Shown: positions 29,329-51,974, counted from the stretch's first letter. The stretch is DNA of 64,000 nucleotides from Bacteroidia bacterium (GCA_044377005.1 JBILJV010000004.1:7698-71697); one strand, 5' to 3'. Made by a program: numbers and translations. The notes: generated by a model from the letters alone, not told the origin.

Positions 29329-32280
29329 TTATTTTTGATTTATTATTTTCATATATTCATTCAAAAACTGTTCCGCTTCTTTTTTCTTGCCAATTTTTTC
29401 TAATTCAGTACCCAAATAATAGTATGCTTCAGCATTGTTCGGTTCTAATTGTATTGCATACTGTAAATTCATAAATGCTGAATCTAATTCATTTAATCTT
29501 AATTGTGCCTTACCTAAGCCTAAATAACCCCTTCCCACATTCCCATAAGTTTCCAAAAAGGAATAAAAATGATTTCTAGCCAAATCGTTTTGATTTTGTA
29601 ATAACTTGATTTCTCCCATTAATAATGGTGCAGAAGCATTCTTTTTGTTTTTGAATGCTTGGGATAAGTTATCGTATGCTTTGGTTAATAAATTTAAATC
29701 AGGGCTGTTGGGGTTTTTCATCATTGCTTGAGTATATAAAACTTCACCCACACTTTGAAGGGCATCGTAATTGCCGGTTTTTAGCTTTATTGCAACATTA
29801 TAAAAATACAAAGCACTGTCTAATTGCATTTTTAACTTATAGGCATTAGCAACACCTCTAGCAAATTCCTCTTCTAACGGGTTGTACTGATAAGCCAATT
29901 TGTAAAAATAAAGAGCGCTATCACCATTATTCTTTTTTAAATATTGATTCCCTTTATAACCATAATGGTTTTCTGCTTTTACAATTGCAGTTATTGGAAC
30001 TCCTCCTACATTGATAACATGTATAGTTCCTTTGGGTGGCCAATATCCATCTAAAATTTGGTTTTTTGAGAGAGTTCTTGTGCTCCAAATGGCGTAATCC
30101 CAATTGTTATTCATCCATTCCATTTCTCTGGTCCATAAACATGGAACATCTTTGCCTGCATTAACAAATGTTTTTAAAGCTTCTTGATTTGAATTTGCAT
30201 TGATTTTGATTTTAGGATTGCCATTGTTGTCTTTTTCTAATATTTCAGGTTTACTTTTTACAAGCCATTCAAAAGCCTCTCTTGGTGTTTGGTTCCAGTA
30301 ATCTATATCATAATTTCCATGAGCCCCTTTTATCCCTCCAATAATTTCATTGAAGTACATGTATTGATAAGGGTGGTTTTTTATATTCCAAGCAATTGGG
30401 CTTATTAAACTCACTATAAAAATGCCCCATATGACTAAACTAATTGTTTTGTTTTTAAAGAATAATCCTAATTGATGCCATGCTAAAACAGAAAGCACTG
30501 TTAATGTTGGATAAATAAACAAAAAGTGTCTCCATCCATTGTAAACATAAGATTTTTTGTAAATAGCATAAGCCAATGGGAAAACTGAAGCAAATAGTAA
30601 TAAAAAAAGGATTAATTTACCTAAAGTGTCTTTTTTCAACCAATTGATAATTGGACCAATAAATACTCCAAATAACAATCCTACAGGGGCCGTTATTATA
30701 ATCATTTTAGGGATATAATACCATGGTTTTTCATACAAACGAACCCCCTCAAATAATTCATAATAAGTGAGTAAGCCAAATTTTTCAAATTGTTTTAAAG
30801 CGTTAAATACTCCTGTCAAGGGTTGTCTCAATGCATATGGCCAAAAGAATATTCCAAAAATATAAGCACTAATGGAGATGATAACAATTGTTTTAATATG
30901 TATTTTAAAGGTTTTACTTGCATTTTTTTTGTATTGAAACAAAAGCCAATACAATCCAATAAACATAACCATATATCCAAAAATTAGCAATGCTCCTACC
31001 CTTACACTCAAAGCAAAACCGATAGCAATGGCAAGCATTACTTTGGTTTGATGTTTTGGTTTAGGTAATTCTTGAAGAAGTTTTACTAAGTAGTAAATGG
31101 ACATAATATAGCCTGTTGCAAATGGAATATCTTTGGAGTTGTTGAAGAAATGACCATATAAAGAAGGTGATGCAAATAAAGCAATAACTGTAATTACAGC
31201 GGGGAGCCAACCAGAGAGTCGTCTAACAAGTAAGGCTGTAAATAAGACTAAAAAGAAACCAATAATCGAATCTATTAAGTGTCTTGCGTAATATTCATTT
31301 TCAAATCCAAATACATTATTAACCGCCCTAATAACTAAATCCACACTAGAGCCATAAGAGAGTTTGCCAAATTCACTAATTTTGGGGTCAAACATTGTCG
31401 TATCACTTCCAAAACTTGTGTAAAATTTGATAACATGTTTAGAGAATTCATTATGTGCAGGTTCGTCCCAAGTGACATTATAATCTTTGCTTGTATATGC
31501 CATGCCAAAAAGGAGCGTTAAGCATAAAACAGCGAAAGTTTTTTTATAAATTGGAGCATTAATGTTGGACCAATCGTTTGACTCTTCCTTAATATTTGTT
31601 AACTTGAAAAAACTACTCCAAAACAATTTAAATCCTAAAAGTGTATTTTTAATTGCCGATTTTAAACCATCACCAATTACAAAATCATTGGTCCCTAAAT
31701 CAAATGAAACAGGCGTGTTTAGTTGTTCCTTTTCAGTAAGTGCAGCAATATGCCAAGCATCTTTAATTTTGTTTTTGAGGACTATTTTTTCAAACAAGTC
31801 TAATGGCATTAATACAGCTTCACAAGTTGATAAGTTAGATTCAACCCCCGAAAATAATTTACCCCAAAAATTAGAAATATAATGAATGTATTTTTGTAAA
31901 AAACCTGCTTTTTGAGGGATTAAACCATCCGCAACAACAACTTTGCTGGGAACAAAAAGCTTATTAGCTTTTTGAGACCACTTAAAATAAAGTGAAGGTT
32001 CGTTTGCCAAAGGAAGTTTTAAGGGAATAATGTTTTTTATATTCTCATCAAAAGTGACACCATTTATGATTTTAATTTTACCACTTTGTATTAGATTCTC
32101 TGTTTCTTTTGACTTTAACGATTGGTCCGAATACAATTCAATAGGATGGTTGGGCTTGATGCAGATTTCTGCTAATTGGATTAAATCTTCTTCGGCTTGA
32201 GGCGATCCATTAGAGGATAGGATATAAAAAGCCGTGTTTGATCCATTTGATTTGATTTTATCACTTTGATGATTGCTCAT
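29329..32280 (-). CDS. three-part membrane protein: unknown cytoplasmic N-domain, then a GT-C (PMT/ArnT, GT39/83-like) polytopic glycosyltransferase core, then C-terminal TPR repeats
   Basis: About 240 aa of soluble N-terminus, then about 11-13 hydrophobic helices. The first-loop acidic motif is VTWDEPAHNEF. The C-terminal ~220 aa has TPR-like pairs (ALYFYKLAYQYNP, AEAYYYLGTELEKIGKKKEAEQF). Confidence 0.55.
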   Translation of the reverse strand: MSNHQSDKIKSNGSNTAFYILSSNGSPQAEEDLIQLAEICIKPNHPIELYSDQSLKSKETENLIQSGKIKIINGVTFDENIKNIIPLKLPLANEPSLYFKWSQKANKLFVPSKVVVADGLIPQKAGFLQKYIHYISNFWGKLFSGVESNLSTCEAVLMPLDLFEKIVLKNKIKDAWHIAALTEKEQLNTPVSFDLGTNDFVIGDGLKSAIKNTLLGFKLFWSSFFKLTNIKEESNDWSNINAPIYKKTFAVLCLTLLFGMAYTSKDYNVTWDEPAHNEFSKHVIKFYTSFGSDTTMFDPKISEFGKLSYGSSVDLVIRAVNNVFGFENEYYARHLIDSIIGFFLVLFTALLVRRLSGWLPAVITVIALFASPSLYGHFFNNSKDIPFATGYIMSIYYLVKLLQELPKPKHQTKVMLAIAIGFALSVRVGALLIFGYMVMFIGLYWLLFQYKKNASKTFKIHIKTIVIISISAYIFGIFFWPYALRQPLTGVFNALKQFEKFGLLTYYELFEGVRLYEKPWYYIPKMIIITAPVGLLFGVFIGPIINWLKKDTLGKLILFLLLFASVFPLAYAIYKKSYVYNGWRHFLFIYPTLTVLSVLAWHQLGLFFKNKTISLVIWGIFIVSLISPIAWNIKNHPYQYMYFNEIIGGIKGAHGNYDIDYWNQTPREAFEWLVKSKPEILEKDNNGNPKIKINANSNQEALKTFVNAGKDVPCLWTREMEWMNNNWDYAIWSTRTLSKNQILDGYWPPKGTIHVINVGGVPITAIVKAENHYGYKGNQYLKKNNGDSALYFYKLAYQYNPLEEEFARGVANAYKLKMQLDSALYFYNVAIKLKTGNYDALQSVGEVLYTQAMMKNPNSPDLNLLTKAYDNLSQAFKNKKNASAPLLMGEIKLLQNQNDLARNHFYSFLETYGNVGRGYLGLGKAQLRLNELDSAFMNLQYAIQLEPNNAEAYYYLGTELEKIGKKKEAEQFLNEYMKIINQK

Positions 32281-38561: not shown

Positions 38562-39515
38562 ATGATACAAAAAACTAAAATATCGATTATTGATGATTTT
38601 CACCCTGTCTTTTTACAACAACTTAATCCATATTTTGAAGTAGATTATCAGCCATCTATTGAAAAAAAAGACATCTTAAGCCAAGTATACAACTCCGAAA
38701 TAATCGCAGTAAGAAGTAAAATTAATTTTGATGAATCTATTATTAAATTATTGCCTAATTTAAAATGTATTGCGCGAGGGGGGGCAGGAATGGATAATAT
38801 TGATGAGGAATATGCATGCAAAAGAGGAATTATTCTTTTAAATGCACCTGAAGGAAATAGAAATACAGTTGCAGAACATTGTATAGGATTGCTCATTGGA
38901 TTAAGCAAGAATATAGTTAAAGGACATCAGAATGTAGTTGACTTAAATTGGGACAGAGAAGGTAATAGGGGTTGGGAAATTAAAGGGAAAAAAATAGGAA
39001 TTATAGGATATGGAAATACTGGATCATCTTTTGCCAGAAAATTATCTGGATTCGATTGCGAGGTTTTGGTTTACGACAAATATAAGTCCGTAAAATCAAA
39101 TGGTTATATTAAAAATGTCGATTTGGAAACGTTGAAAAAAGAAAGTGATGTAATAAGTTTACATATTCCTTTGACAAAAGAAACCAATCAAATGATTGAT
39201 CTTTTATTTATAGAAGGCTTAAAACAAGGAGTTGTTTTGATAAATACGAGTAGAGGAAATGTCGTAAATCAAGCTTCTGTATTAAATTGGATAAAAAGTG
39301 GAAAAATAAAACAGTATGCTACAGACGTACTTGAAAATGAAAATTTAAAGTCATTTACAGCCTATGAAATGGATTTATTTAAAAGTTTGTTAGCTACAAA
39401 TCAGGTGATTATAACTCCGCATGTTGCTGGTTGGAGTCATGAAAGCTATTTTAATATTGCGGATGTATTGTCGAAAAAACTGATTCATTTTTCGTTAAGC
39501 ACAAAAAAAAATTAG
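38562..39515 (+). CDS. D-isomer-specific 2-hydroxyacid dehydrogenase (phosphoglycerate-dehydrogenase-like)
   Basis: GIIGYGNTGSSFARKL NAD-binding fold, NTSRG, and HVAGWS catalytic His context. Confidence 0.85.
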   Translation: MIQKTKISIIDDFHPVFLQQLNPYFEVDYQPSIEKKDILSQVYNSEIIAVRSKINFDESIIKLLPNLKCIARGGAGMDNIDEEYACKRGIILLNAPEGNRNTVAEHCIGLLIGLSKNIVKGHQNVVDLNWDREGNRGWEIKGKKIGIIGYGNTGSSFARKLSGFDCEVLVYDKYKSVKSNGYIKNVDLETLKKESDVISLHIPLTKETNQMIDLLFIEGLKQGVVLINTSRGNVVNQASVLNWIKSGKIKQYATDVLENENLKSFTAYEMDLFKSLLATNQVIITPHVAGWSHESYFNIADVLSKKLIHFSLSTKKN

Positions 39516-39594
39516 TTAAAAGTTGAAATAAAGAAAAAAAACTATGAAATTGCCTCGCTTTTTGAGATTAAAAAATTGTTATTTTAAAATAAAT

Positions 39595-42500
39595 ATGAAG
39601 AATAAGTTTACTATCCAATCCCTGTTAATGTTTTTTATGACATTTGGATTTGCCATGATGATGAATGCGCAAACAAACATGGGTTTTATCAGGGGCGTTG
39701 TCGAAAAGAACAATGAACCAATGTCTAACGCAATTATTGTGTTGAAAAATTCAAATGGTGAGGAAATTAAGAAAGTTAGAACTGAAAAAAATGGGTCTTT
39801 TACTTTCATTAACCTTGAGCCAGGATTGTACAATATGAAAATTGAAGGAGATGGCATCCGTTTTGAATCCAAAGAAATTGACGACATTAATGTTACGACA
39901 GAAGGTAAGGTGCTTACACTTGAAGTTGAAGAAAAAGTTGTTCAAGTAGGTCAAGGAGAAAAAACCAAAAAAACAGACAAACAACAAAAAACCAAATTGG
40001 AACAAACTTCAACAACTGCAACAGTTAGTGGAGACCAAATACAACAAACAGGTTTTAGAGGTGCAACTTCAATGGCTCAGTTCCAGTCCGGTGTAACAAA
40101 CACCAGAGGTGGATTGAGTGGTAGAGGTGCTCGTACAGATGGAACAGCTGTTTTCGTTGATGGTGTTCGTGTTAACAACTCAAACATTAACCAAGGGATG
40201 AATGGTCAAGTTGACATTATGCAAGCGGGTATTCCTGCGCAATATGGTGACTTTACAGGATTGGGAATTTCAATTACCACTAAAGGAGGTGTTTCTTCAC
40301 GTAAAGTTGGAAGTTTTGAAGCTCGTTCAACTAGTATGTTCAATGCTTACCATCACAATTTGTTTGAAGCATTTTACGCTACACCAATTTTATGGAAAGA
40401 AAATCCAAGATACAAAACAGGAGAAAGTGATGTAAAGCGTATTCCAATTGCTGCTGTAAATTTATCTGGAAACTTTAATTACAATAGAGAACCAAGTCCA
40501 TCATACATTGGTTATTATGTAATTAAAGATGATCGTTTAGCTGAAATTGAAAGAAATCCTTTAAGAGTTAATACAGATGGAGGTTTGGTTCACAATGCAA
40601 ACTATTTAAATGAAAATGATTATGATAATGTTAAAGTGAGACCAAATGTTTATTCATTATCATCTTCTGCGCAAGCAAAATTCGATTTTAGATTGTCTGA
40701 TTTAGCAACCTTAACAGCTTTTGGTAACTTTGTTTATTCTAAGGGCGTAAATGGAGGTAATAATATAATGGCTTACAAAGACAATCCATTAAGCACTAAT
40801 TTATATACTTTAGGTTATGTCAAATACACACAAAACTTTAAAGGTCCAGACTCAGCTAGAAAGGCAGATAATGTGACATTAAATAACACTTATTTTACGG
40901 TTCGTTTTGACTACCAATCTACTTGGGCTAAAAACATGGACAACATTCACAGAGATGATATTTTTAGTTACGGATACATTGGAAGATTTGTTCATTACCC
41001 AACTGAATTTTTCAGTTACTATGGTAATTTAAATAATCCAAATGCACCTGCAAGAAAATTAGTAGACCAAAATGGAGATACTGTGTATTTAAGAAATTTT
41101 TGGGAACAAACTGGATATAGAGATACCTCAATTAAATTCCAACAAGCGAATATTAATACTGTAAGAGGAAATTATACCAATGCATTATTTAATAGATTTA
41201 ATGAATTAGGTGCAAATGTTACATTTGACCAACAAATTTTACAACAACAAGGTTTGTTAAATGGTTACAATCCAAACAATATTTATTCATTGTGGAATTC
41301 TCCAGGTACACAATTGTCTGGTTATGGAAAATCACAAAGAGAAACTTACACTTTCTTTGCTATGGGTGAAACTGAAGTTAAAGGTCCTCAAAATAGCAGT
41401 AAAAAAGCTTCATCAGGTCATAAACTGCAATTTGGTTTAACCTATGAGCAAAACGTAACTAGAGCATTCTCTGTTGGAGCAAATAATTTATGGAGATTAA
41501 TGTATCAATATGCGAATAGTCACATTGCAGAACTTGATAGAAAAAATCCAATTTTATCATACGATGCAAATGGCGTTTTCCAAGACACAGTTAGGTACAA
41601 TCGTTTGGTGAATAAAGAGGCTCAATCACAATTTGATAGAGAATTTAGACAAAGTTTAATCAATAAAAATGCGAAAGATGTTTATGGAAATCCAATAACA
41701 GAAACTACTTTCCTAGATATCAATTCTTATGCACCATCTGATTTTAAACTATCTATGTTTAGTGCTGACGAATTATTGAACAATGGTAGTGGAGTTGTTT
41801 CATATTATGGCTATGACCATTTAGGAAATAAATTAAGAGGAAGACCGAGTGTAAACGACTTTTTAGATGATAAAAACAAACGTTCAATTGGAGCATTCAA
41901 TCCTATTTATACAGCTGCATGGTTCCAAGATCAATTCTTCTTTAAAGATTTAGAATTTAGACTTGGTTTAAGATTAGAGCGTTATGATGCAAACCAATTG
42001 GTGTTAAAAGATCCATATTCATTATATCCAATTCAACAAAAAGGTGAAGTGAAAGAATTAGATGGTAATGTGATCACTCACCCAGAAAATATTGGAGATG
42101 ATTATGCAGTTTATGTTGATGATGTAAACAATCCAAGAAAAATATTAGGTTACAGAAAAGACAATAACTGGTACGACGAAAATGGAACTTTATTGTCTTC
42201 TCCTGATTTAATTGCTAATAGAACCAATAATGGTAAAGTTGCTCCATTGTTAGTTGATCCAACTAGACAAGAAGTAACAAGGGAGTCATTCAAAGATTTT
42301 CAACCTAAAGTAAATATTTTACCACGTATTTTCTTCAAATTCCCATTAAATCCTAAAAGTTTATTCTTTGCAAGTTATGACGTATTGGCTCAAAGACCAG
42401 GCGCAAACTTTGCAACTATTGATGACTATGTTTTCTTAACACAAAAAGCAACTAACTCATTAAACAACCCTGCTTTAGGATCACGTATTACTACAGATTA

Positions 42501-43398
42501 TCAAATTGGTTTTAAACAACAATTGTCTCCAACAACATTATTTGGATTCACTTCATACTATAGAGAAACTAAAAATGATATTTCTGCATTCCAATTTAAC
42601 AATGCATATCCTATTACTTACATCAGTTTCAATAACTTAGATTTTAGTACTGTAAAAGGATTGATTTTAGAGGTAGATTACAAAGCTCAAAACAATATGA
42701 GTTTAGGTGGTAACTACACATTGCAATTTGCTGATGGAACAGGTTCTAATATTAACTCACAAAGAGCCTTAATCGCTAGTAACCAACCAAATTTAAGAAG
42801 TTTGTTCCCTATGGGAGAGTTAGATATTCGTCATCAATTTAAAGGCGTCTTTAACTGGTCATTTTTTGATGGCAAAGGAACAACTCCAAAAGAAAGAGCT
42901 AAACGTAAATATTTAGGACCAGTAATTGGAAAAACAAAAGTATTAAGTAATACAAATATTAACTTAACATTTACCGCAGTTTCTGGTTTACCATACACTG
43001 CAACATTACAACCCGTTCAATTGGGTTCTGCCAACCGTTCTCCAATAAAAGGAACTCCATTCGGGTCAAGATTACCATGGCAATTTAACTCAAACTTAAA
43101 TATTCAAAAAGATGTGCCATTATCTTGGACAAATAAAGAAGGTAAGAAAAAAGGAGCTAGTTTGCAAGTGTACTTATTTGTAACGAATTTGTTAAATACA
43201 AGAAACGTATTCTCGGTTAACACTTACACAGGTTCTGCTGAAGATGATGGATTCTTAAATTCACCTCAAGGACAACAAGCATTACAAAATCAATTAAACG
43301 CAGCAGCATATACATTCTATTACAATGCATCTGTTAATAGTCCTTTCAATTACCAAGCTCCTAGAATGATGTATTTAGGAACTAGATTTATGTTTTAA
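39595..43398 (+). CDS. oversized TonB-dependent-receptor-like outer-membrane protein with N-terminal CarboxypepD_reg-like domain
   Basis: Signal peptide MKNKFTIQSLLMFFMTFGFAMMMNAQ (the track start at 39544 is less likely). Beta-sandwich GFIRGVV..GSFTFINLEPGLYNMKI, plug-like LSGRGARTDGTAVFVDGVRV...GIPAQYGDFTGLGISITTKGG, then about 1000 aa of barrel ending YLGTRFMF. Confidence 0.7.
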   Translation: MKNKFTIQSLLMFFMTFGFAMMMNAQTNMGFIRGVVEKNNEPMSNAIIVLKNSNGEEIKKVRTEKNGSFTFINLEPGLYNMKIEGDGIRFESKEIDDINVTTEGKVLTLEVEEKVVQVGQGEKTKKTDKQQKTKLEQTSTTATVSGDQIQQTGFRGATSMAQFQSGVTNTRGGLSGRGARTDGTAVFVDGVRVNNSNINQGMNGQVDIMQAGIPAQYGDFTGLGISITTKGGVSSRKVGSFEARSTSMFNAYHHNLFEAFYATPILWKENPRYKTGESDVKRIPIAAVNLSGNFNYNREPSPSYIGYYVIKDDRLAEIERNPLRVNTDGGLVHNANYLNENDYDNVKVRPNVYSLSSSAQAKFDFRLSDLATLTAFGNFVYSKGVNGGNNIMAYKDNPLSTNLYTLGYVKYTQNFKGPDSARKADNVTLNNTYFTVRFDYQSTWAKNMDNIHRDDIFSYGYIGRFVHYPTEFFSYYGNLNNPNAPARKLVDQNGDTVYLRNFWEQTGYRDTSIKFQQANINTVRGNYTNALFNRFNELGANVTFDQQILQQQGLLNGYNPNNIYSLWNSPGTQLSGYGKSQRETYTFFAMGETEVKGPQNSSKKASSGHKLQFGLTYEQNVTRAFSVGANNLWRLMYQYANSHIAELDRKNPILSYDANGVFQDTVRYNRLVNKEAQSQFDREFRQSLINKNAKDVYGNPITETTFLDINSYAPSDFKLSMFSADELLNNGSGVVSYYGYDHLGNKLRGRPSVNDFLDDKNKRSIGAFNPIYTAAWFQDQFFFKDLEFRLGLRLERYDANQLVLKDPYSLYPIQQKGEVKELDGNVITHPENIGDDYAVYVDDVNNPRKILGYRKDNNWYDENGTLLSSPDLIANRTNNGKVAPLLVDPTRQEVTRESFKDFQPKVNILPRIFFKFPLNPKSLFFASYDVLAQRPGANFATIDDYVFLTQKATNSLNNPALGSRITTDYQIGFKQQLSPTTLFGFTSYYRETKNDISAFQFNNAYPITYISFNNLDFSTVKGLILEVDYKAQNNMSLGGNYTLQFADGTGSNINSQRALIASNQPNLRSLFPMGELDIRHQFKGVFNWSFFDGKGTTPKERAKRKYLGPVIGKTKVLSNTNINLTFTAVSGLPYTATLQPVQLGSANRSPIKGTPFGSRLPWQFNSNLNIQKDVPLSWTNKEGKKKGASLQVYLFVTNLLNTRNVFSVNTYTGSAEDDGFLNSPQGQQALQNQLNAAAYTFYYNASVNSPFNYQAPRMMYLGTRFMF

Positions 43399-43421
43399 TT
43401 AAAAAAGAAAAAAAAGTTATT

Positions 43422-46400
43422 ATGAAAAGTGTTTTTATAAAATTAAAAGTTGTGGCCGTATTAATGTCTGTTTCGCAGATATTATCGGGGGCTGAAATTA
43501 AAAATTTCAATTCAACGACCAATGGAAACGGTCATTCACAAAAAAATAGCAATGGTTTTGCTGAATTTGCAAACAATTGTAAAGCCGCTTCACAAAGTGC
43601 AGATTTAGATGTTAACAATGTTAGAACCCGTATTTTAAACGGAGGAGACATGTGGTGGGATTTAAACAACCCTAAATATGAAATACCTAAAGTGTCTGAT
43701 GCAAATAGTGTTAGAAAACACTCTTTGTTTGCTGGTGCTTTATGGATAGGTGGATTAGGTAGAGGTGATGGTAATTTAAGAATGGCTGCTATGACTTACA
43801 GACAAAGAGGAAACGATTTTTGGCCAGGTACCTTAGACCAAAGTTCTGTAAGTACTGATGCATCTCGTTGTGAATCTTGGGACAAAATGTTTAAAGTAAC
43901 CAGAGATGAGTTGTTGAGACAACAAACTTCAGGATTTACAGATTTATCAAAAGGGATTTTAGAATGGCCAGCTTATGGTAATCCTAATATTCCGTTTGCA
44001 ACGAATCAAACAACAGATTTAGCTCCTTTCTTTGATTTAGATGGAGATGGTTTTTATGACCCAACTAAAGGTGATTATCCAATTTTAGATCCTACCAGAG
44101 ACAATGATAAAAACTTACCGAAAGATCAACCAGATCAAATGATTTGGTTTGTATATAATGATAGAGGAAATGTTCACTCTGAAACAGGTGGTATCCCAAT
44201 TGGTTTGGAAATCCAAACAACAGCTTTTGCTTTCCAAACAAATGATGAAGTAAATAATATGACATTCTACCGATCTAAAGTAGTTAATAGAGGTTTTGAG
44301 GCTTTAGATAAAACATATTTTGGTCAATGGGTGGATGCGGATTTAGGAAATTATGCCGATGATTATGTTGGATGTGATGTAGGTAGAAGTTTAGGCTATT
44401 GCTATAACGGTGATGACAATGACGAGGGTGTACTTGGATATGGTTTAAATCCTCCTAGTATCGGTGTCGATTTCTTTGAAGGTCCATTGGATTCAGCAGG
44501 AAACGAACTTGGAATGGGTGCTTTTGTTTATTATGACAATAACTTTAATCCGGTAAATGGTAATCCTAATAACGCTATTGATTTTTACAATTACTTACAA
44601 GGTAATTGGATGAATGCTGTTTGTATGAAATATGGTGGAAACGGAGTAAACGGAACCGTTTGTACTAAATACATGTTTGATAATGGTACAAATACAGCAA
44701 CTGCAACTTTACCAGCATGGACAGAAAAATCTTCAGGTAATCAACCAGCAGACAGACGTTTCTTACAATCAGCAGGACCATTTACTTTGTTTAATGGTGC
44801 CGTTAACTATGTAACAGTAGGTGTTGTTTGGGCAAGAGCAACATCAGGTGGAGCAACAGGGTCACTTAGTTTGTTAAAATTGGCAAGTGATAAAGCTCAA
44901 CAATTGTTTAATAATAAATTCGATTTACCTGATGGTCCAGAACCACCGGCTGTAGAAGTTCAAGAATTAAACAATGAACTAGTTATGAAATTGTTCAATA
45001 CAGATTTGCCTGAAAACTATTTTGAAGCAATCAAAAATGAATTAGGTCAAACGATTGAATACAAATTCCAAGGTTATTTGTTATACCAATTGAAAGATGG
45101 TACTGTTTCAAATACAGAATTAGACAACATAGAAAGAGCAAGATTAATTTACCAATGCGATGTAAAAGATGGTATTTCTTCATTAATTAATAGAGAATTT
45201 GATGCTTCTGTATCTGCTAAAATCCCTAAATTAAAAGTTGATGGCTTAAACCAAGGAGTTCAAAGAACATTAAGTATCAAAGAAGATGCATTTGCTTCAG
45301 GTTCAAACAAAACGCTTGTAAATTTTAAAAACTATTATTATCTAATGGTGGCTTATGGATATCCTTCTAATGACCCAAATAAAGAAGAAGATGTTCAATT
45401 CTTGCCTGGAAGAAATACAGCTAAATTTACAGCTTATCCAAGAAATACTTCACCAGAAAATGGTGGAAGTATGCAGCAAGCATTATATGGAGATGGTCCT
45501 ATTTTGAAACAAATAAATGGTCAAGGTAATGGGGGGCAAATTATAGAATTTAGCAAAGAGACTATTGATGCTATTTTAAGTAGTTCAACCAACAAGGTAG
45601 ATGAGCCTGTTTATTTAGGAGGAAGAGGTCCTGTAAATATTAAAGTTGTAGATCCAATGAAAGTGCCTAACGCTAATTTTGAATTTAGATTTATAGAACC
45701 TAGAGAGGTAAGAGTAAATTCAAGAGGTACTGGTTCAAATAAATATCAAGATTCAATCGCTGCAGGAAGTTATTGGATGCTAATAAACACAACTTCTAAT
45801 GATACTGTTTACTCTGAAGGAACTATTGCTACAAAAATAGAAACTATTCAAGGAAGAGACTCAATAGCAGGTGGCAAAAAGAACGGTCCAAAAGTTAAAT
45901 TAACCAATAGTTTAAAAGATTGGGGATTGGCTGTTGAGATTGTTCAAGTACCAAGCCCAGGTAGAAATCCATACGGGGAACCTTCTAATGGATTTTTGAA
46001 TTATACTGTCAAATTTGCTGACGAAAATAAACAATGGTTAACAGCAGTATTTGATGTAGATGGAGATAATTCTCCATTGAACTGGATTCGTTCAGGTACA
46101 AATGGCTTATCAGCAACATTCGATTCATATTCACATGATTTTAATGCTGATTTTGATCCAAACCATACAGGAAATGATTCTTATGACCCTTATGAAGTTT
46201 TTGAAAAAATATGGGATGGTAGAATAGCTCCATACGCACTAACAGCTAGAGCTTTAGGTCCAAAACCTTCAGGAACAGGTGCTGGTACTATATTATATAG
46301 CCCTGCATTTGCAAACTCCACAGTTGCTGATAACCCAATGACTGAATTGGCAAGTATTAAACTTGTATTAACCCCTGATGTAAGAAAATGGACTCGTTGT

Positions 46401-47366
46401 GTAGTTGTTGAAATGGGAGAAGACGTTGTATTAACACAAGGTTCAACCCCTAAGTTTAACCTAAGAGCTGCTAATTCTAAAAAACCTATTTACAATAATT
46501 CAGATGGTAGCTTGATCCGTTGGGAAGAAGATCCTTCAGAAACAGGAAGAAGTTATTTCCCTGGATATGCGGTGAATTTAGAAACTGGTGAAAGATTAAA
46601 TATCATCTTTGGAGAAGATTCTTACGTTCCTTCTGAAAATGGTAATGATATGATTTGGAATCCTACAAGTGTTCAGTCTAATGGAACTTATGTATCATTT
46701 GGAGGTAAACATTTTATCTACGTAATGGGAAGTTACCAAGGGATGAATACCAGAGGATATAGAGGTCCAATCTATGATGAAGGTGTTGAATATAAGAATT
46801 TATTAACTTCAGGTGGTTTCGACAAAAGAAGAGTATTCTCTCAAGCTATGTGGGTTATTCCTGCTTTAGCAGAAAGAGGGTACAATCTGAAAAATGGTGT
46901 TCCTCCAACTCAAGTTGATATTTCAATTAACATGAGAAAACCATTCACTAAGAAAGCATCAGAAATTGGCGATTCAACTAAATTGCCAGGTTACACATTC
47001 TCAACTGAAAGTATTTTCAATAATATCAATGAAACTACAGGTAAAAATGCAGTTAATATGATCAATATTGTACCTAATCCATATTATGCAACCTCTGCAT
47101 ACGAATCAAGTGCAATTGATTCACGTGTTAAAATCACTAATCTTCCACCTAAAGCAACTATTTCTGTATATACATTAAATGGCGCTTTGGTTAGAAGAAT
47201 TAAAAAAGATGACAATGAAACATTTGTTGATTGGGATTTGAAAAATAATAATAGAGTGCCAATAGCAAGTGGATTTTATATCATTCACGTTGATTGTGGT
47301 GATTTAGGAGAAAAAATATTAAAATGGTATGGCGTTATGCGTCAATTAGATTTGGATACATATTAA
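43422..47366 (+). CDS. 1314-aa secreted protein of unknown family with T9SS-CTD-like C-terminal domain
   Basis: N-terminal signal-like segment. DxDGDG-type motifs (FFDLDGDGFYDP at nt 44034-44051; VFDVDGDNSP). The last ~100 aa, NIVPNPYYATS...ISVYTLNGALVRRI...ASGFYIIHVD...KILKWYGVMRQLDLDTY, resemble a type-A CTD. There is a 23-nt gap to the upstream gene. Confidence 0.6.
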   Translation: MKSVFIKLKVVAVLMSVSQILSGAEIKNFNSTTNGNGHSQKNSNGFAEFANNCKAASQSADLDVNNVRTRILNGGDMWWDLNNPKYEIPKVSDANSVRKHSLFAGALWIGGLGRGDGNLRMAAMTYRQRGNDFWPGTLDQSSVSTDASRCESWDKMFKVTRDELLRQQTSGFTDLSKGILEWPAYGNPNIPFATNQTTDLAPFFDLDGDGFYDPTKGDYPILDPTRDNDKNLPKDQPDQMIWFVYNDRGNVHSETGGIPIGLEIQTTAFAFQTNDEVNNMTFYRSKVVNRGFEALDKTYFGQWVDADLGNYADDYVGCDVGRSLGYCYNGDDNDEGVLGYGLNPPSIGVDFFEGPLDSAGNELGMGAFVYYDNNFNPVNGNPNNAIDFYNYLQGNWMNAVCMKYGGNGVNGTVCTKYMFDNGTNTATATLPAWTEKSSGNQPADRRFLQSAGPFTLFNGAVNYVTVGVVWARATSGGATGSLSLLKLASDKAQQLFNNKFDLPDGPEPPAVEVQELNNELVMKLFNTDLPENYFEAIKNELGQTIEYKFQGYLLYQLKDGTVSNTELDNIERARLIYQCDVKDGISSLINREFDASVSAKIPKLKVDGLNQGVQRTLSIKEDAFASGSNKTLVNFKNYYYLMVAYGYPSNDPNKEEDVQFLPGRNTAKFTAYPRNTSPENGGSMQQALYGDGPILKQINGQGNGGQIIEFSKETIDAILSSSTNKVDEPVYLGGRGPVNIKVVDPMKVPNANFEFRFIEPREVRVNSRGTGSNKYQDSIAAGSYWMLINTTSNDTVYSEGTIATKIETIQGRDSIAGGKKNGPKVKLTNSLKDWGLAVEIVQVPSPGRNPYGEPSNGFLNYTVKFADENKQWLTAVFDVDGDNSPLNWIRSGTNGLSATFDSYSHDFNADFDPNHTGNDSYDPYEVFEKIWDGRIAPYALTARALGPKPSGTGAGTILYSPAFANSTVADNPMTELASIKLVLTPDVRKWTRCVVVEMGEDVVLTQGSTPKFNLRAANSKKPIYNNSDGSLIRWEEDPSETGRSYFPGYAVNLETGERLNIIFGEDSYVPSENGNDMIWNPTSVQSNGTYVSFGGKHFIYVMGSYQGMNTRGYRGPIYDEGVEYKNLLTSGGFDKRRVFSQAMWVIPALAERGYNLKNGVPPTQVDISINMRKPFTKKASEIGDSTKLPGYTFSTESIFNNINETTGKNAVNMINIVPNPYYATSAYESSAIDSRVKITNLPPKATISVYTLNGALVRRIKKDDNETFVDWDLKNNNRVPIASGFYIIHVDCGDLGEKILKWYGVMRQLDLDTY

Positions 47367-47390
47367 TCAATAATTATAGAAATTTTAAGA

Positions 47391-48530
47391 ATGAAAAAAA
47401 TAGTTTTAGCATTAAGCATCGCCTTTACTTGTTTACAAGTCAATGCTCAAATAAGTGACGGTCCTGCAAGAGCAGGTCAATATGGATTTACTCAATTATT
47501 GGTTAATGGATGGGGAAGTTCAAGTGGAATGGGAAACGCATATTCATCAGGGGTATCTGGTGTAGAATCGTTTTACTTAAACATAGCTGGTTTAGGTAAA
47601 GTAACAAACACTGAAATCGCATTCAGTCGTACTTCTTGGTTAGGTGGAACTGGTATTAATATCAATACTTTTGGATTTGGTCAAAAAGTTGGAGAAGGTG
47701 TTGTCGGTATTAGCGTTCAGTCTTTTGCAATTGGTCAAATTCCAATTACAACAGTGGATCAACCGGATGGAGGAATAGGAACATACAAACCTTCAATCAG
47801 TAATGTAAATTTAGCATACGCCCACAATTTCTCAGAGAGAATTTCTGCAGGCTTGAATGTGAAAATAGCAAGTGAGTCAACTCCAGATGTTAGAGTTGGT
47901 GCAATGGCATTTGATGCTGGGTTACAATATGCTGACCAATTTTTAAGAGGAAAAGCAGTGAAATATCAAAATCCTGAAATGAATCCAGCTGCAGCTAGAG
48001 GAAGTGACATAAGATTTGGTGTAAGTATCAAAAATTTAGGAACAGATGTTAGACACACTGGAGATGGATTGGCTGCAAAGTCAAACATAAATGGCAAAGA
48101 GTTTACTTCAACTACTTCCCAAAGAGCTGATAAGGTATCATTACCTTCACAAATTAATATCGGTTTAGCTTATGATTTTAGATTAGATAAAGATGAAAAA
48201 ACATACTGGAATCGTTTAACAGCTGCTTTGAATTTTACGAATAATGTGGCTATGGCGAATCAAACTTCTTTAGGTTTAGAATATGCTTACAAAGAAATAT
48301 GGTTGTTAAGAGGTGGATTTAATTATGAAAAAGGTGTCTTTAATTACGAAACTAGAAATAATGCCTACACTGGTTTAAATTTAGGAACATCTATTCAAAT
48401 CCCTCTTATTAAGAAAAATGAAAAAGGTTTCCGCACGAAATCAGATGCACTTGCAATTGATTACTCATACAGAGCAACTAGACCTTTTACAGGAACTCAT
48501 ACTTTTGGTTTAAGAATCAAACTTGATTAA
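47391..48530 (+). CDS. PorV/PorQ-family-like (FadL-type) outer-membrane barrel
   Basis: 379 aa with a signal peptide ...LQVNAQ. The N-terminal G-rich segment SSSGMGNAYSSGVSGVESFYLNIAGLG parallels the GMGDAGVA...NPA motif of PorV/PorQ. The rest has a beta-barrel pattern. There is a 24-nt gap to the upstream gene. Confidence 0.55.
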   Translation: MKKIVLALSIAFTCLQVNAQISDGPARAGQYGFTQLLVNGWGSSSGMGNAYSSGVSGVESFYLNIAGLGKVTNTEIAFSRTSWLGGTGININTFGFGQKVGEGVVGISVQSFAIGQIPITTVDQPDGGIGTYKPSISNVNLAYAHNFSERISAGLNVKIASESTPDVRVGAMAFDAGLQYADQFLRGKAVKYQNPEMNPAAARGSDIRFGVSIKNLGTDVRHTGDGLAAKSNINGKEFTSTTSQRADKVSLPSQINIGLAYDFRLDKDEKTYWNRLTAALNFTNNVAMANQTSLGLEYAYKEIWLLRGGFNYEKGVFNYETRNNAYTGLNLGTSIQIPLIKKNEKGFRTKSDALAIDYSYRATRPFTGTHTFGLRIKLD

Positions 48531-48546
48531 TTAACAAAAAAAATAG

Positions 48547-48554
48547 TATTTTTG
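48547..48554 (+). promoter_or_regulatory. -7 box TAttTTTG upstream of greA, abutting the preceding terminator stem
   Basis: Exact TAnnTTTG match 56 nt before the greA ATG. Confidence 0.35.
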
Positions 48555-48555
48555 C

Positions 48556-48591
48556 ACAAGTGCTTTCATATAGAGAGCACTTGTTTTTTTT
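48556..48591 (+). terminator. intrinsic terminator closing the three-gene outer-membrane operon
   Basis: ACAAGTGCT-ttcatatagag-AGCACTTGT is a 9-bp stem followed by a run of 7 T. Confidence 0.7.
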
Positions 48592-48609
48592 AATAACCAA
48601 TATAATAAA

Positions 48610-49083
48610 ATGTCAGACATAGTATACTTAACCAAAGAAGGTTACGATAATTTAAAAAAAGAAATTGATGAACTTAAAAAAGTTCAAAGACCTGCTATTA
48701 GTGCACAAATTGCTGAGGCAAGGGACAAAGGGGATTTGTCTGAAAATGCAGAATATGATGCAGCTAAAGAAGCTCAAGGTTTGTTAGAAGCTAAAATTGC
48801 AAACCTTGAAACTATGTTTTCCAAAGCAAGGATTATTGATGAATCAAAATTAGATAATTCAAAAGTTAACTTGTTAAGTAAAGTTAAAGTAAAAAACTTA
48901 AATGCCAATCGAGAAATGTTATACATGATTGTTTCTGAAAAAGAAGCAGATATGAAATTGGGTAAAATATCTAGTAAATCAGCAATTGGAGCTGGCTTAA
49001 TAGGAAAAGCACAAGGTGATATTGTGGAAATTCAAGTGCCTGCAGGAATTGTAAAATTAGAAATTTTGTCAATTAGTTTATAA
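48610..49083 (+). CDS. greA: transcription elongation factor GreA
   Basis: Contains YLTKEGYDNLKKEIDELK...ARDKGDLSENAEYDAAKEAQG; 157 aa. Confidence 0.95.
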   Translation: MSDIVYLTKEGYDNLKKEIDELKKVQRPAISAQIAEARDKGDLSENAEYDAAKEAQGLLEAKIANLETMFSKARIIDESKLDNSKVNLLSKVKVKNLNANREMLYMIVSEKEADMKLGKISSKSAIGAGLIGKAQGDIVEIQVPAGIVKLEILSISL

Positions 49084-49090
49084 AGCGAGA

Positions 49091-49483
49091 ATGTCAACCA
49101 TTTTTGATAAAATCATTAACAAAGAAATTCCATGTTTTAAAATACATGAAAATGATGATTTTATGGCATTCTTAGATGTTAATCCAATTGCTATTGGACA
49201 TACTTTAGTGATCCCCAAAAATCCACAAGATTATATTTTTGATTTATCGGATAGTGATTTTATGGCTTTTCATTTGTATTCAAAAAAAATAGCTTCTGCT
49301 CTAAAAAAAACCATAAACTGTAAAAAAATAGGAGTGGCTGTTATAGGTCTTGAAGTGCCACACGCTCACATTCATTTAGTACCCATGAATCATGTAGGTG
49401 ACCTTAATTTTACTGGAGAAAGATTAGTATTGTCAAATATTCAGTATGAAGATATTTGCAAACAAATTTTATCGAATCTTTAA
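49091..49483 (+). CDS. HIT family (histidine triad) nucleotide hydrolase
   Basis: FLDVNPIAIGHTLVIPK and the histidine triad HAHIHLVP. Confidence 0.9.
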   Translation: MSTIFDKIINKEIPCFKIHENDDFMAFLDVNPIAIGHTLVIPKNPQDYIFDLSDSDFMAFHLYSKKIASALKKTINCKKIGVAVIGLEVPHAHIHLVPMNHVGDLNFTGERLVLSNIQYEDICKQILSNL

Positions 49484-49562: not shown

Positions 49563-51974
49563 ATGAAGTGGTTAATTTTCGTTGTAGTTTTTTTTAGTGT
49601 GTTTATTACTAATGCGCAACGCTATACTATAAAAGGCCTAGTCAATAATTCTGCAGGAGAGCCTGTTGCATATGTTAATGTGTCTATATTGGATATGCCA
49701 AGTATGGGAACTACTACCAATTTAAAAGGAGAATATACATTTAAATTGGAAGAAGGAAGCTATACCTTAGTATATGATATTATAGGGTATAAAACTTTGA
49801 AATATCCTATAATTGTGAATAAAAATGCGATCATCAGTTCTGTTATTATTGAACAGGATGAAACTGAGTTTGTAGGCGTTAAAGTATCAATGAAAAAAGT
49901 TGATCGTTCTGAGGAAATCATTAGACAGGTTATTGCTAATAAATTAAAATATTTATATACCACAAGCTATTCAAATGAGGCTTATATTAAAGCGACTTTA
50001 GTAAATGAATTCGCAGTGAGTAAAAATGATACTTTAGATTCATTGTCAACCCCGAATCTTACTATGGCAGAAATTCATTTGAAAACCTTTTTTTCGACAC
50101 CCAATAAAATCAAAGAGGAAAGAAAGGCTGTAGTTTTAAGAGGCAATACCCAAGATTTGTTTTATTTGAGTCATACAGAAGGAGATTTTAATTTTTATAA
50201 GAATTTAATTCAAGTGCCTGCATTAAGTGAGTCACCTCTACTATCCCCCATTTCAAACAGTGGGCTTGTTGCTTATAAGTATAAATGGATGGGTGTTTTC
50301 TATGAAAATAATATTAAGTATTACAGAATAAAAGTAAGTCCGGGATTGTTAGGGAATGCACTCTTTAGCGGTGAATTAGTAATTCAAGACAGTACATGGT
50401 CAATAAAGTCATTAAGCTTGGTCGCGCCCAAGTATCACACACCTGAATATGATTTTTTTGAAGTCAATCAAACCTATGGTTTTGAATTAGGAAAGTATCA
50501 TTTAACAAGACAAGAATTTAATTATCAAACAGGAACCAAAAAAAAACACACAAATGGAAAAACTATAGTAGTTTACTCAAATTTCGAAGATTCAGTAATA
50601 CTGAACAAACGGTTTTTTAATAATGAGTTAAGTTCAACAGCAAAAGAAGCATATGAAAAAGATTCACTCTATTGGCAAGGCATTCGTAAGGAACCCTACT
50701 CGTCATTAGAGATAGCTTTTATACGTAAATCAGACAGTTTGATTGCCTTAAAATCTCAGAAGTTTTGGCAAGACTCAGTTGATGCTGTTTTTAATAAAAT
50801 TACTTTAAAAAAATTATTCTTATTTGGCCAAGGCAATTACGATAGAAGTAATGAACGAACATGGTCTTTTAAACCTTTAGTTTTTGTATATCAGCCATTA
50901 TATATTGCTGGTCCTAGGGTAGATTATTGGGTTGCGTATAACAAAGAAAATAAAAATAAGAAAGAGTTTAATGCATTTGTTCGGGCCAATATGGGAACTA
51001 TTAACAAAGATTTAAAAGGTAATATTTCATTAACAAGGTTATATAACCCATTTAAAAGAGCCTCCTATTCCATGAGTATAGGAAGTGATTTTGGAATTAT
51101 TAACCCCTTTGAATCTTGGATTAGATTGTTTTCAAGAGCAAACTTTTATGTACATGATTTTGTTAGTTTTTCTCATCGTAAGGAAATTATAAACGGATTG
51201 TATGTGAGATTGGGAACTGAATTTTCAAATAGAAGGTCTGTGAGTAATTTAACATTTGATTCAAGAGGCGATAGTTTATGGGGAGGTAATACTGATATTA
51301 TTGATTTTAGTTATTACAAAGCAATGTATTTTTCGACATTTATAAGTTATGTTCCATTTCAGAAATATGTACGGGAACCTTATCAAAAGTTAATATTAGG
51401 TTCGGCTTGGCCTGAGTTATTTTTGAGTTATCGAAAGGGCGTTCCATACTTAGGAAGTGTTGTAGATTTTGATTATATGGAATTTGGAATTGAACACGAT
51501 TTAAAAGTAGGCTTGTTGGGTAATACCAAATATAGATTTGTAAGTGGAGAATTTCTTCAATCCAAAGATTTAAGAATAGTTGATTATAAATTTCAACGCA
51601 GAGCAGGTCCTATATTTTTTACCAATCCATTGTTTTCATTTCAAGGGATAGATAGCACATACAATACCTTAAAACGCTTTTATGAATTCCATTATTTACA
51701 CCGTTTTAACGGAGCATTAATAAACAAATTGCCATTACTGAAAAAGTTAAATGTCATAGAAGTAGCTGGTGCAGGTTTTTTATATACCCAAGAAAGAAAA
51801 TTTAGATATGTAGAAGGTTTTGTAGGAATAGAAAAAATTATACGTTTTTGGAATGAACGATTTAAGTTAGGTGTTTTTTTGGTAGCAGCTCAAAGTAATT
51901 TATACACATACAGACCTCAATTAAAATTTACAATTGAAGCTTATGATAAAGTGCGAAATAAATGGCCATACTAA
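49563..51974 (+). CDS. CarboxypepD_reg-like domain protein with large uncharacterised C-terminal region (DUF5686-like)
   Basis: Signal peptide, YTIKGLVNNSAGEPVAYVNVSILD...GEYTFKLEEGSYTLV beta-sandwich, then about 700 aa with no motif I can assign. Confidence 0.5.
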   Translation: MKWLIFVVVFFSVFITNAQRYTIKGLVNNSAGEPVAYVNVSILDMPSMGTTTNLKGEYTFKLEEGSYTLVYDIIGYKTLKYPIIVNKNAIISSVIIEQDETEFVGVKVSMKKVDRSEEIIRQVIANKLKYLYTTSYSNEAYIKATLVNEFAVSKNDTLDSLSTPNLTMAEIHLKTFFSTPNKIKEERKAVVLRGNTQDLFYLSHTEGDFNFYKNLIQVPALSESPLLSPISNSGLVAYKYKWMGVFYENNIKYYRIKVSPGLLGNALFSGELVIQDSTWSIKSLSLVAPKYHTPEYDFFEVNQTYGFELGKYHLTRQEFNYQTGTKKKHTNGKTIVVYSNFEDSVILNKRFFNNELSSTAKEAYEKDSLYWQGIRKEPYSSLEIAFIRKSDSLIALKSQKFWQDSVDAVFNKITLKKLFLFGQGNYDRSNERTWSFKPLVFVYQPLYIAGPRVDYWVAYNKENKNKKEFNAFVRANMGTINKDLKGNISLTRLYNPFKRASYSMSIGSDFGIINPFESWIRLFSRANFYVHDFVSFSHRKEIINGLYVRLGTEFSNRRSVSNLTFDSRGDSLWGGNTDIIDFSYYKAMYFSTFISYVPFQKYVREPYQKLILGSAWPELFLSYRKGVPYLGSVVDFDYMEFGIEHDLKVGLLGNTKYRFVSGEFLQSKDLRIVDYKFQRRAGPIFFTNPLFSFQGIDSTYNTLKRFYEFHYLHRFNGALINKLPLLKKLNVIEVAGAGFLYTQERKFRYVEGFVGIEKIIRFWNERFKLGVFLVAAQSNLYTYRPQLKFTIEAYDKVRNKWPY

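Follow-up and report, generated by a model that had tools for sequence, protein, structure and literature searches.

In ordinary type IX secretion system (T9SS) cargo, the C-terminal domain (CTD) is removed by the sortase PorU. PorU and PorZ of Porphyromonas gingivalis keep their own CTDs and sit on the barrels PorV and PorQ, respectively (PMC10202324). To be secreted, type-A CTDs require the motif-E Lys residues as well as their final 13 residues; motif E regulates the interaction with PorV, an AlphaFold model puts motifs B, D and E against the extracellular loops of PorV, and cognate PorV-like barrels were hypothesized to shield CTDs from cleavage (PMC10202324). The general PorV serves type-A CTDs, and the genes of type-B cargo cluster with those of their own PorP/SprF barrels (PMC12618676). 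In the SprB-SprF type of Flavobacterium johnsoniae, the proposed task of the barrel is to anchor its cargo or to target it, and the CTD of this cargo is probably uncleaved (PMC10202324, PMC12618676). Here we describe a three-gene unit found in 64,000 nucleotides of DNA from a Bacteroidia bacterium (GCA_044377005.1 JBILJV010000004.1:7698-71697; this whole stretch is called the window in the following), in which a TonB-dependent receptor, a 1314-aa protein with a type-A-like CTD and a conserved C-terminal tail, and a barrel of the PorV/PorQ family are encoded one after another. As far as our literature searches showed, a triad of a receptor, a protein with a tailed CTD and a private PorV-family barrel has not been described. 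The elements of the unit are the following:

39544..43398, + strand: TonB-dependent receptor, 1284 aa; N-terminal CarboxypepD_reg, plug, large barrel, C-terminal ...RFMF
43422..47366, + strand: gene of the 1314-aa protein (ATG start, 1314 aa plus stop); signal peptide, β-rich body of ~1190 aa, type-A-like CTD, conserved tail
43422..43490, + strand: Sec-type signal peptide MKSVFIKLKVVAVLMSVSQILSG/AE, read from the sequence, with a putative cleavage position
43542..44981, + strand: best-conserved part of the body (residues 41-520) according to the conservation profile and the lists of invariant residues; includes NGGDMWWD (73-80), WVDADLGNYxDDYVGCD and GDRRF
44028..44063, + strand: FFDLDGDGFYDP, residues 203-214, putative Ca-binding loop; family consensus FxDxxGDGxYxP
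46047..46076, + strand: VFDVDGDNSP, residues 876-885, second Asp-rich loop, partly conserved
47058..47333, + strand: T9SS type-A-like CTD, residues 1213-1304; seven-strand Ig-like sandwich with the motifs VPNPYY, GFYIIHV and EKILK
47334..47363, + strand: conserved tail VMRQLDLDTY (residues 1305-1314), which follows the last strand of the CTD
47391..48530, + strand: outer-membrane barrel of the PorV/PorQ family, 379 aa; NF033709 106.3 bits (cut-off 90)
48556..48584, + strand: terminator-like hairpin, 12-bp stem and T run, which closes the three-gene unit

The unit resembles the PorZ-PorQ and PorU-PorV pairs in that a type-A CTD protein for T9SS export is paired with a barrel of the PorV/PorQ family. 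Moreover, the fold of its CTD is closest to those of PorZ (5m11) and PorU (6za2), in which the CTD is retained as an anchor (PMC10202324). In contrast to these two proteins, the body of the 1314-aa protein contains neither a C25 peptidase nor the β-propellers of PorZ, and the scores with the equivalog hidden Markov models (HMMs) fall short of their cut-offs. The pairs also differ from our unit in that here the genes of the protein and the barrel are adjacent, the CTD is followed by a conserved 10-residue tail which PorZ lacks, and the receptor is a third constant partner. The clustering of the cargo gene with its own barrel gene is shared with the SprB-SprF type; however, the CTD is type-A-like, the type-B model TIGR04131 matches another protein of the window and not this one, and the barrel belongs to the PorV/PorQ family and not to PorP/SprF (TIGR03519 ≤19 bits). 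As in SusC/SusD and BtuB/BtuG, a large CarboxypepD_reg TonB-dependent receptor is co-encoded with a large partner that would be surface-exposed. Unlike SusD and BtuG, to neither of which it is homologous, this partner is no lipoprotein; delivery by T9SS and anchorage on a separate barrel are proposed for it. The BamG-BamH pair of the Bacteroidota β-barrel assembly machinery (BAM), in which a 14-strand barrel of the FadL/PorV type grips a large extracellular protein by its loops beside another barrel (PMC12578637), provides an architectural analogy only, since no sequence relation was found and the partner barrel in our unit is a TonB-dependent receptor and not BamA.

Results

The ORF (open reading frame) at 43422-47366 (+) is the sole long one at that place. 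It begins 23 nt after the receptor gene and ends 24 nt before the barrel gene, and no terminator-like hairpin was found between the three genes. The order serA, receptor, 1314-aa protein, barrel, greA, HIT was kept in 77 of the 79 loci of GTDB species. The triad also recurs in most readable contexts of distant representatives (loci among L084-L090), including a metagenome-assembled genome (MAG) labelled Chitinophagales. Wherever upstream sequence was available, the receptor gene was syntenic with that of the 1314-aa protein, with the exception of L055, L064, L080 and L082/83. We consider it very probable that the three genes work together as one outer-membrane unit.

The exceptions are of several kinds. 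The 3.79-Mb chromosome OZ244977.1 carries two copies of the family, L053 within a full triad and L055 alone beside a histidine kinase gene. L064 also stands alone. In L082 (P0377, 7001-11212) a stand-alone copy has a truncated tail (...KWAGVIRK), and a gene for a class D (OXA-type) β-lactamase (L082:11357-12178; 270 bits, cut-off 250) lies beside it. A truncated tail was also found in L080 (P0351), and P0263 combines a deviant tail with the full triad.

The frame formed by serA on one side and greA-HIT on the other (38562-49483 in the window; L001-L079, L087 and L089) was kept from 96% down to ~40% identity of the 1314-aa protein. Its order was also the same in MAGs labelled as different orders, which is unusually stable for an outer-membrane cassette.

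The preliminary description of this locus had assigned the final ~100 aa to the pattern of type-A CTDs, and the motifs and the fold agree with this assignment; the HMM matches are weak but specific. Motifs B (PxP), D (GxY) and E (KxxK) are present as VPNPYY, GFYIIHV and EKILK, respectively (PNPYY at residues 1218-1222, GFYIIHV at 1284-1290, KILK at 1298-1301), and the segment ISVYTLNGALV was found as well. Within the family, P1218, N1219, P1220, G1284 and Y1286 do not vary, and K1298 hardly does. For the whole protein, NCBIfam gave no PorU/C25 match and only two weak ones, both on the CTD. One was to the PorZ C-terminus, with an E of 2.5e-5; the other, to TIGR04183, scored 22.1 bits (cut-off 23) and aligned residues 1237-1293 with positions 13-61 of the 72 in the model. 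PF18962 (Por_Secre_tail) matched 16 of 32 family members, with a best E of 6e-4. The AlphaFold2 model of residues 1185-1314 (predicted local distance difference test, pLDDT, 78.7) is a seven-strand sandwich, the last strand of which is EKILKWYG (1297-1304). In the Foldseek search of this model against the PDB, PorZ 5m11 ranked first (E 3.5e-5, template modelling (TM) score TMq 0.57, root-mean-square deviation (rmsd) 2.8 Å), and PorU 6za2 ranked third, after the DUF3244 protein 3sd2. Among the lower matches were the CTD of RgpB and those of RemZ and NucA (8gl8_D, 8glk_D), which are seen in the translocon of F. johnsoniae. Since the structural matches include PorZ, PorU and cargo CTDs, the C-terminus as modelled truly has the fold of a T9SS CTD. 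Searches of the PDB by sequence or profile with the protein, the CTD and the barrel gave nothing or chance matches only, and PorZ was reached weakly (E 0.29) with the family CTD profile. The identity of the CTD columns (0.71-0.75) equals that of the best segments of the body. This fits a domain that stays in use better than a disposable signal.

Three further proteins with T9SS sorting domains are encoded in the window, and the presence of T9SS was read from these genes, as the core T9SS genes are not in the window. The two proteins with type-A CTDs served as internal controls for the normal end of a CTD:

16950-19676, + strand: 908-aa protein with a canonical type-A CTD (NCBIfam)
21127-22803, + strand: 558-aa subtilisin-like peptidase with a type-A CTD (NCBIfam)
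26753-29290, − strand: 845-aa protein with a type-B CTD (TIGR04131)

We have little doubt that the 1314-aa protein is itself a T9SS cargo.

Type-A CTDs end the protein within a few residues past motif E, and the 1314-aa protein runs on beyond this point. The preliminary description had counted 13 extra residues after the canonical end of the domain. Thirteen residues indeed follow KILK (WYGVMRQLDLDTY), but the first three still belong to the last modelled strand, and the extension in the model is the 10 residues beyond it. The alignments of the last part of the protein, which had been suggested as a check, gave the same picture: the overhang relative to the end of the TIGR04183 model is ~10 residues, and PorZ ends ~5 residues past the motif-E Lys, whereas the family runs 13 further. 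Four canonical type-A CTD proteins, two from the window (16950-19676 and 21127-22803) and two from other loci (L064:6588-7559 and L082:737-1633), lack the tail; their C-termini coincide with the end of the TIGR04183 model or lie only a few residues from it.

The motif of the family, including the preceding KWYG, is K-W-[YFM]-G-x-x-[RH]-x-x-D-L-x-x-[YF]-COOH. All 79 species loci keep it as [KR]W[YFM]G[VI][MIV][RH]x[LIV]DLD[ST][YF]-stop, and a relaxed form, KWFGxxR[PQ]xDLxx[FY]-COOH, was found in most (nearly all) of the 149 cluster representatives at 37-49% identity. W1302, G1304, D1310, L1311 and D1312 are invariant or nearly invariant, and the variants of the tail follow clades. No other ORF of ≥150 aa in the 1.35 Mb of DNA examined ends with the motif. 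Judged from these alignments, the tail is a family-wide conserved hallmark and not a product of chance or an accident of one sequence. It stands directly after motif E, the end of type-A CTDs that contacts PorV. In the AlphaFold2 model the tail is non-strand with a pLDDT of ~56; a low-confidence, non-strand tail in an isolated model is what would be expected of a peptide that binds a partner.

The barrel exceeded the cut-off of the family model NF033709 and remained far below those of the equivalogs (PorV 52.8 of 250, PorQ 44.6 of 220, PorV2 27.5 of 325). The barrels neighbouring four distant relatives behaved in the same way (NF033709 108-156 bits, equivalog cut-offs not reached). By these scores, the barrel is classified as a subfamily distinct from PorV, PorQ and PorV2. 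A subunit of the Bacteroidota BAM was also considered for it, with BamP as the candidate; BamP, however, is periplasmic and the FadL-like barrel is BamG (PMC12578637). A PDB sequence search with the barrel (E≤1) returned no chain.

The upstream receptor, the third constant member of the unit, was not mentioned in the preliminary description. Pfam assigned CarboxypepD_reg to it with 36.7 bits and Plug with 22.8 bits, just below the gathering score of 23.9. It contains the plug signature ...GGLSGRGARTDGTAVFVDGVRV and a TonB-box-like VxV segment, and it ends in Phe (...LGTRFMF), which is the β-signal pattern of outer-membrane proteins. PF07715 and PF00593 are on record for many of its homologues. 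In the PDB, its profile matched YncD and PqqU in their plug regions and SusC in its N-terminal domain. No SusC/RagA match was found in NCBIfam at E≤0.01, and the likeness to SusC is confined to the N-terminal CarboxypepD_reg. Neither a SusD-like nor a lipoprotein gene was found beside the receptor gene among the ORFs of the window using NCBIfam and Pfam. Inspection of the N-terminus of the 1314-aa protein, MKSVFIKLKVVAVLMSVSQILSG/AE, revealed no lipobox Cys.

The features of the 1314-aa protein listed in the preliminary description were all found. The protein is long and rich in Gly (9.4%), Asn (9.1%) and Asp (7.0%), and exactly nine Cys residues were counted (53, 150, 318, 327, 401, 414, 579, 993 and 1292), of which C53 and C150 are invariant across the family, together with many Asp, Asn, Gly, Arg and aromatic residues. 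Both reported motifs of the DxDGDG type were located; FFDLDGDGFYDP is kept in the broad family as FxDxxGDGxYxP, VFDVDGDNSP is reduced there to scattered Asp residues, and both may bind Ca. Conservation peaks at residues 41-160, 241-360, 441-520 and 1041-1080, as well as in the CTD. The claim that the body belongs to no recognizable catalytic or binding family was borne out by Pfam, NCBIfam, the PDB and Foldseek. Pfam gave no match for the protein and only weak Por_Secre_tail or FlgD_ig matches over 32 family members; a PDB search gave none with either the single sequence or a 108-sequence profile. Thus ~1150 aa are left without a match in Pfam, NCBIfam or the PDB.

The AlphaFold2 model of the body (residues 46-1210, 108-sequence alignment) is almost all β, with a pLDDT of 86.6 and a predicted TM score (pTM) of 0.76. 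The remote-homology check that had been suggested, Foldseek on AlphaFold2 models, gave no full-length match to a characterized family and assigned the CTD only. The matches of the body in the PDB were weak and local (E ~1e-4, TM ≤0.24, rmsd 8-15 Å). They comprised enzymes of the glycoside hydrolase (GH) families GH116, GH94, GH92 and GH63 and lyases, all of which have β-supersandwich accessory domains; we take these domains to be the matched part, the aligned residues being unreported. A library of viral structures gave nothing meaningful (TM ≤0.17).

Three assignments of the whole protein were rejected. A glycoside hydrolase or phosphorylase is contradicted by the lack of the helical (α/α)6 catalytic domain in the model and by the weakness and local extent of the Foldseek matches. 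A divergent PorU was considered because PorU is of similar size and its gene adjoins porV in some genomes. No PorU/C25 HMM match was found in NCBIfam or Pfam and no gingipain- or caspase-like fold was among the Foldseek matches of the body, in agreement with the preliminary description, in which no C25 dyad could be found. As for a PorZ homologue, NF052228 reached 22.9 bits against the equivalog cut-off of 260, and this on the CTD only (residues 1209-1290).

The family proved to be large. A word-indexed search returned more than 6283 relatives, all of full length (~1210-1690 aa) and none with a Pfam domain; they carry either no name or the name 'T9SS type A sorting domain-containing protein'. 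When 1.84 billion representatives were searched exhaustively with phmmer, the clusters, defined at 50% identity, numbered 8617 at a threshold of E≤1e-3, 6206 when this was lowered to E≤1e-10, and at least 2385 with E≤1e-30. Clustering at 90% gave more than 6000 family sequences. Relatives occur in at least 590 GTDB species. All named matches were to MAGs of Bacteroidia, sampled from fresh water, the sea, hot springs and other sources, and no cultured organism was among the best 240 matches listed; the organism labels on MAG records are unreliable, some being 'Rhizobium' or 'Bifidobacterium'. At equal divergence, the median identity was 50% for the 1314-aa protein, 41% for SerA, 43% for the receptor and 43% for the barrel.

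One relative (P0305, L087:7001-12064, 1687 aa) has ~370 extra residues with a PSII_BNR Pfam match on its record, and serA, the receptor gene and a PorV-family barrel gene still flank it. This insertion within an intact context indicates that the body tolerates domain insertions.

Discussion

We propose that the 1314-aa protein is exported via Sec and then by T9SS by means of its type-A-like CTD, and that its private barrel subsequently takes it over or captures it. Unlike ordinary cargo, it would keep its CTD, and the CTD together with the tail would hold it permanently on the extracellular loops of the barrel or in its lumen or lateral opening. Together with the barrel, it would act in concert with the co-transcribed receptor of 1284 aa, for which the Asp/Asn/Gly-rich, slowly evolving ectodomain may serve as an extracellular lid for capture or processing. 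The unit would then correspond to SusC/SusD or BtuB/BtuG without a lipoprotein, its surface partner being delivered by T9SS rather than lipidated. From the locus we infer that the CTD is retained, that the tail touches the barrel, that the protein is physically coupled to the receptor and that the unit takes part in uptake. Docking with retention, which the preliminary description had already put forward, has circumstantial support from the synteny of the barrel gene, the closeness of the CTD to PorZ and PorU, the conservation of the CTD and the position of the tail after motif E. Retention in particular is suggested because the CTDs of PorU and PorZ, which are among the closest structural matches, are retained. 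We regard retention of the CTD as an evenly balanced prospect. The whole chain, from T9SS export through retention on the barrel to the lid of the receptor, is put forward tentatively, as a reading somewhat more prone to fail at one of its links than to hold throughout.

Several observations weigh against this proposal. The body yields no functional clue, since Foldseek found only weak local matches to β-supersandwich proteins among glycoside hydrolases and phosphorylases. The lead of PorZ and PorU over the cleaved cargo CTDs in the Foldseek search is modest (E 3.5e-5 and 8e-4 compared with ~2e-3). PorZ lacks the tail; retention hence does not need it, the tail may serve another purpose, and the analogy with PorZ does not rest on a common tail. 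L055 and L064 are stand-alone copies whose tail is intact, whereas in L080, where the tail is truncated, a PorV-family gene nevertheless adjoins upstream. Among the exceptions, the state of the tail thus does not sort cleanly with whether a barrel gene is present, and the result is mixed. Finally, the deep synteny with serA, greA and HIT would also fit a housekeeping role in the envelope in place of one in nutrient uptake.

The alternative that survives best, although we consider it unlikely, is that the protein is an ordinary T9SS cargo. The CTD with the tail would then be a sorting signal and the barrel a transient dedicated shuttle; PorU would remove the CTD, and the body would be released or anchored by glycolipid near the receptor. 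All three motifs of cleaved type-A CTDs, B, D and E, are present in the protein, and the CTDs of RemZ, NucA and RgpB are also among its Foldseek matches. Moreover, dedicated shuttles are known for type-B CTDs (PMC12618676). On the other hand, over thousands of sequences the CTD and the tail match the best segments of the body in conservation, which is unusual for a disposable signal. The general PorV serves type-A CTDs (PMC12618676), so that a private barrel would be needless for transit, and the closest structural matches are the two retained CTDs, those of PorZ and PorU.

A quite improbable alternative is that the triad belongs to the machinery of envelope biogenesis or is an accessory of T9SS, and not a nutrient system, either as a PorZ/PorQ-like module for the delivery of an anchor lipid or the organization of surface attachment or as an extracellular canopy on a FadL-type barrel, like BamH on BamG. 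The conserved order from serA to HIT, kept to ~40% identity across MAGs labelled as different orders, the conservation of the protein above that of SerA and the usual single copy per locus set are in agreement with such a role. So are the NCBIfam match to the C-terminus of PorZ, the sole one besides TIGR04183, and the precedent of BamG-BamH (PMC12578637). However, the equivalog models of PorZ, PorU, PorQ and PorV are far below their cut-offs. The upstream protein resembles an importer by its plug motif, its TonB-box-like VxV segment and its homologues with PF00593, and nothing ties the body to the binding of lipid or lipopolysaccharide.

That the tail is a BAM-type β-signal or a functionless lengthening of the last strand is hardly credible: almost all members do end in an aromatic residue (Y or F), but hydrophobic residues stand at -1, -4 and -6 and Asp at -3 and -5, in place of the alternating -1/-3/-5/-7 pattern of outer-membrane proteins that the ...LGTRFMF end of the receptor truly shows, the protein is modelled as a soluble multi-domain β-sandwich protein, and D-L-D is invariant over thousands of sequences.

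If the proposed retention on a private barrel is true, the fate of a type-A CTD, cleavage by PorU or use as an anchor, would follow a rule defined by the sequence, namely a short, mutable tail and a cognate barrel. Bacteroidota could then also fit TonB-dependent transporters with surface partners that are delivered by T9SS and not lipidated. In its widest form, which is speculative and which we hold to be improbable, the proposal would add a third kind of cargo-barrel coupling in T9SS: the tail would lock into the private barrel of the FadL/PorV type and shield the CTD from PorU, and the result would be a lipoprotein-free SusCD-like machine with a 130-kDa lid, delivered by T9SS, tethered beside the transporter. 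Many uncultured aquatic Bacteroidia would have inherited this machine vertically, as an ancient part of their core equipment. The family occurs in hundreds of species in a fixed housekeeping neighbourhood and is better conserved than SerA, yet it has neither a Pfam model nor a solved structure. It represents a large annotation gap for abundant freshwater and marine Bacteroidia.

Two more genes of the window with no or weak NCBIfam matches encode a 671-aa protein (22800-24815, − strand) and a 983-aa tetratricopeptide repeat (TPR) protein (29329-32280, − strand). Just after greA and HIT, the window contains a gene (49563-51974, + strand) for an 803-aa protein with CarboxypepD_reg and DUF5686 (E 1e-128). 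This is a large protein of the outer-membrane type, and its gene is syntenic in the closer relatives only.

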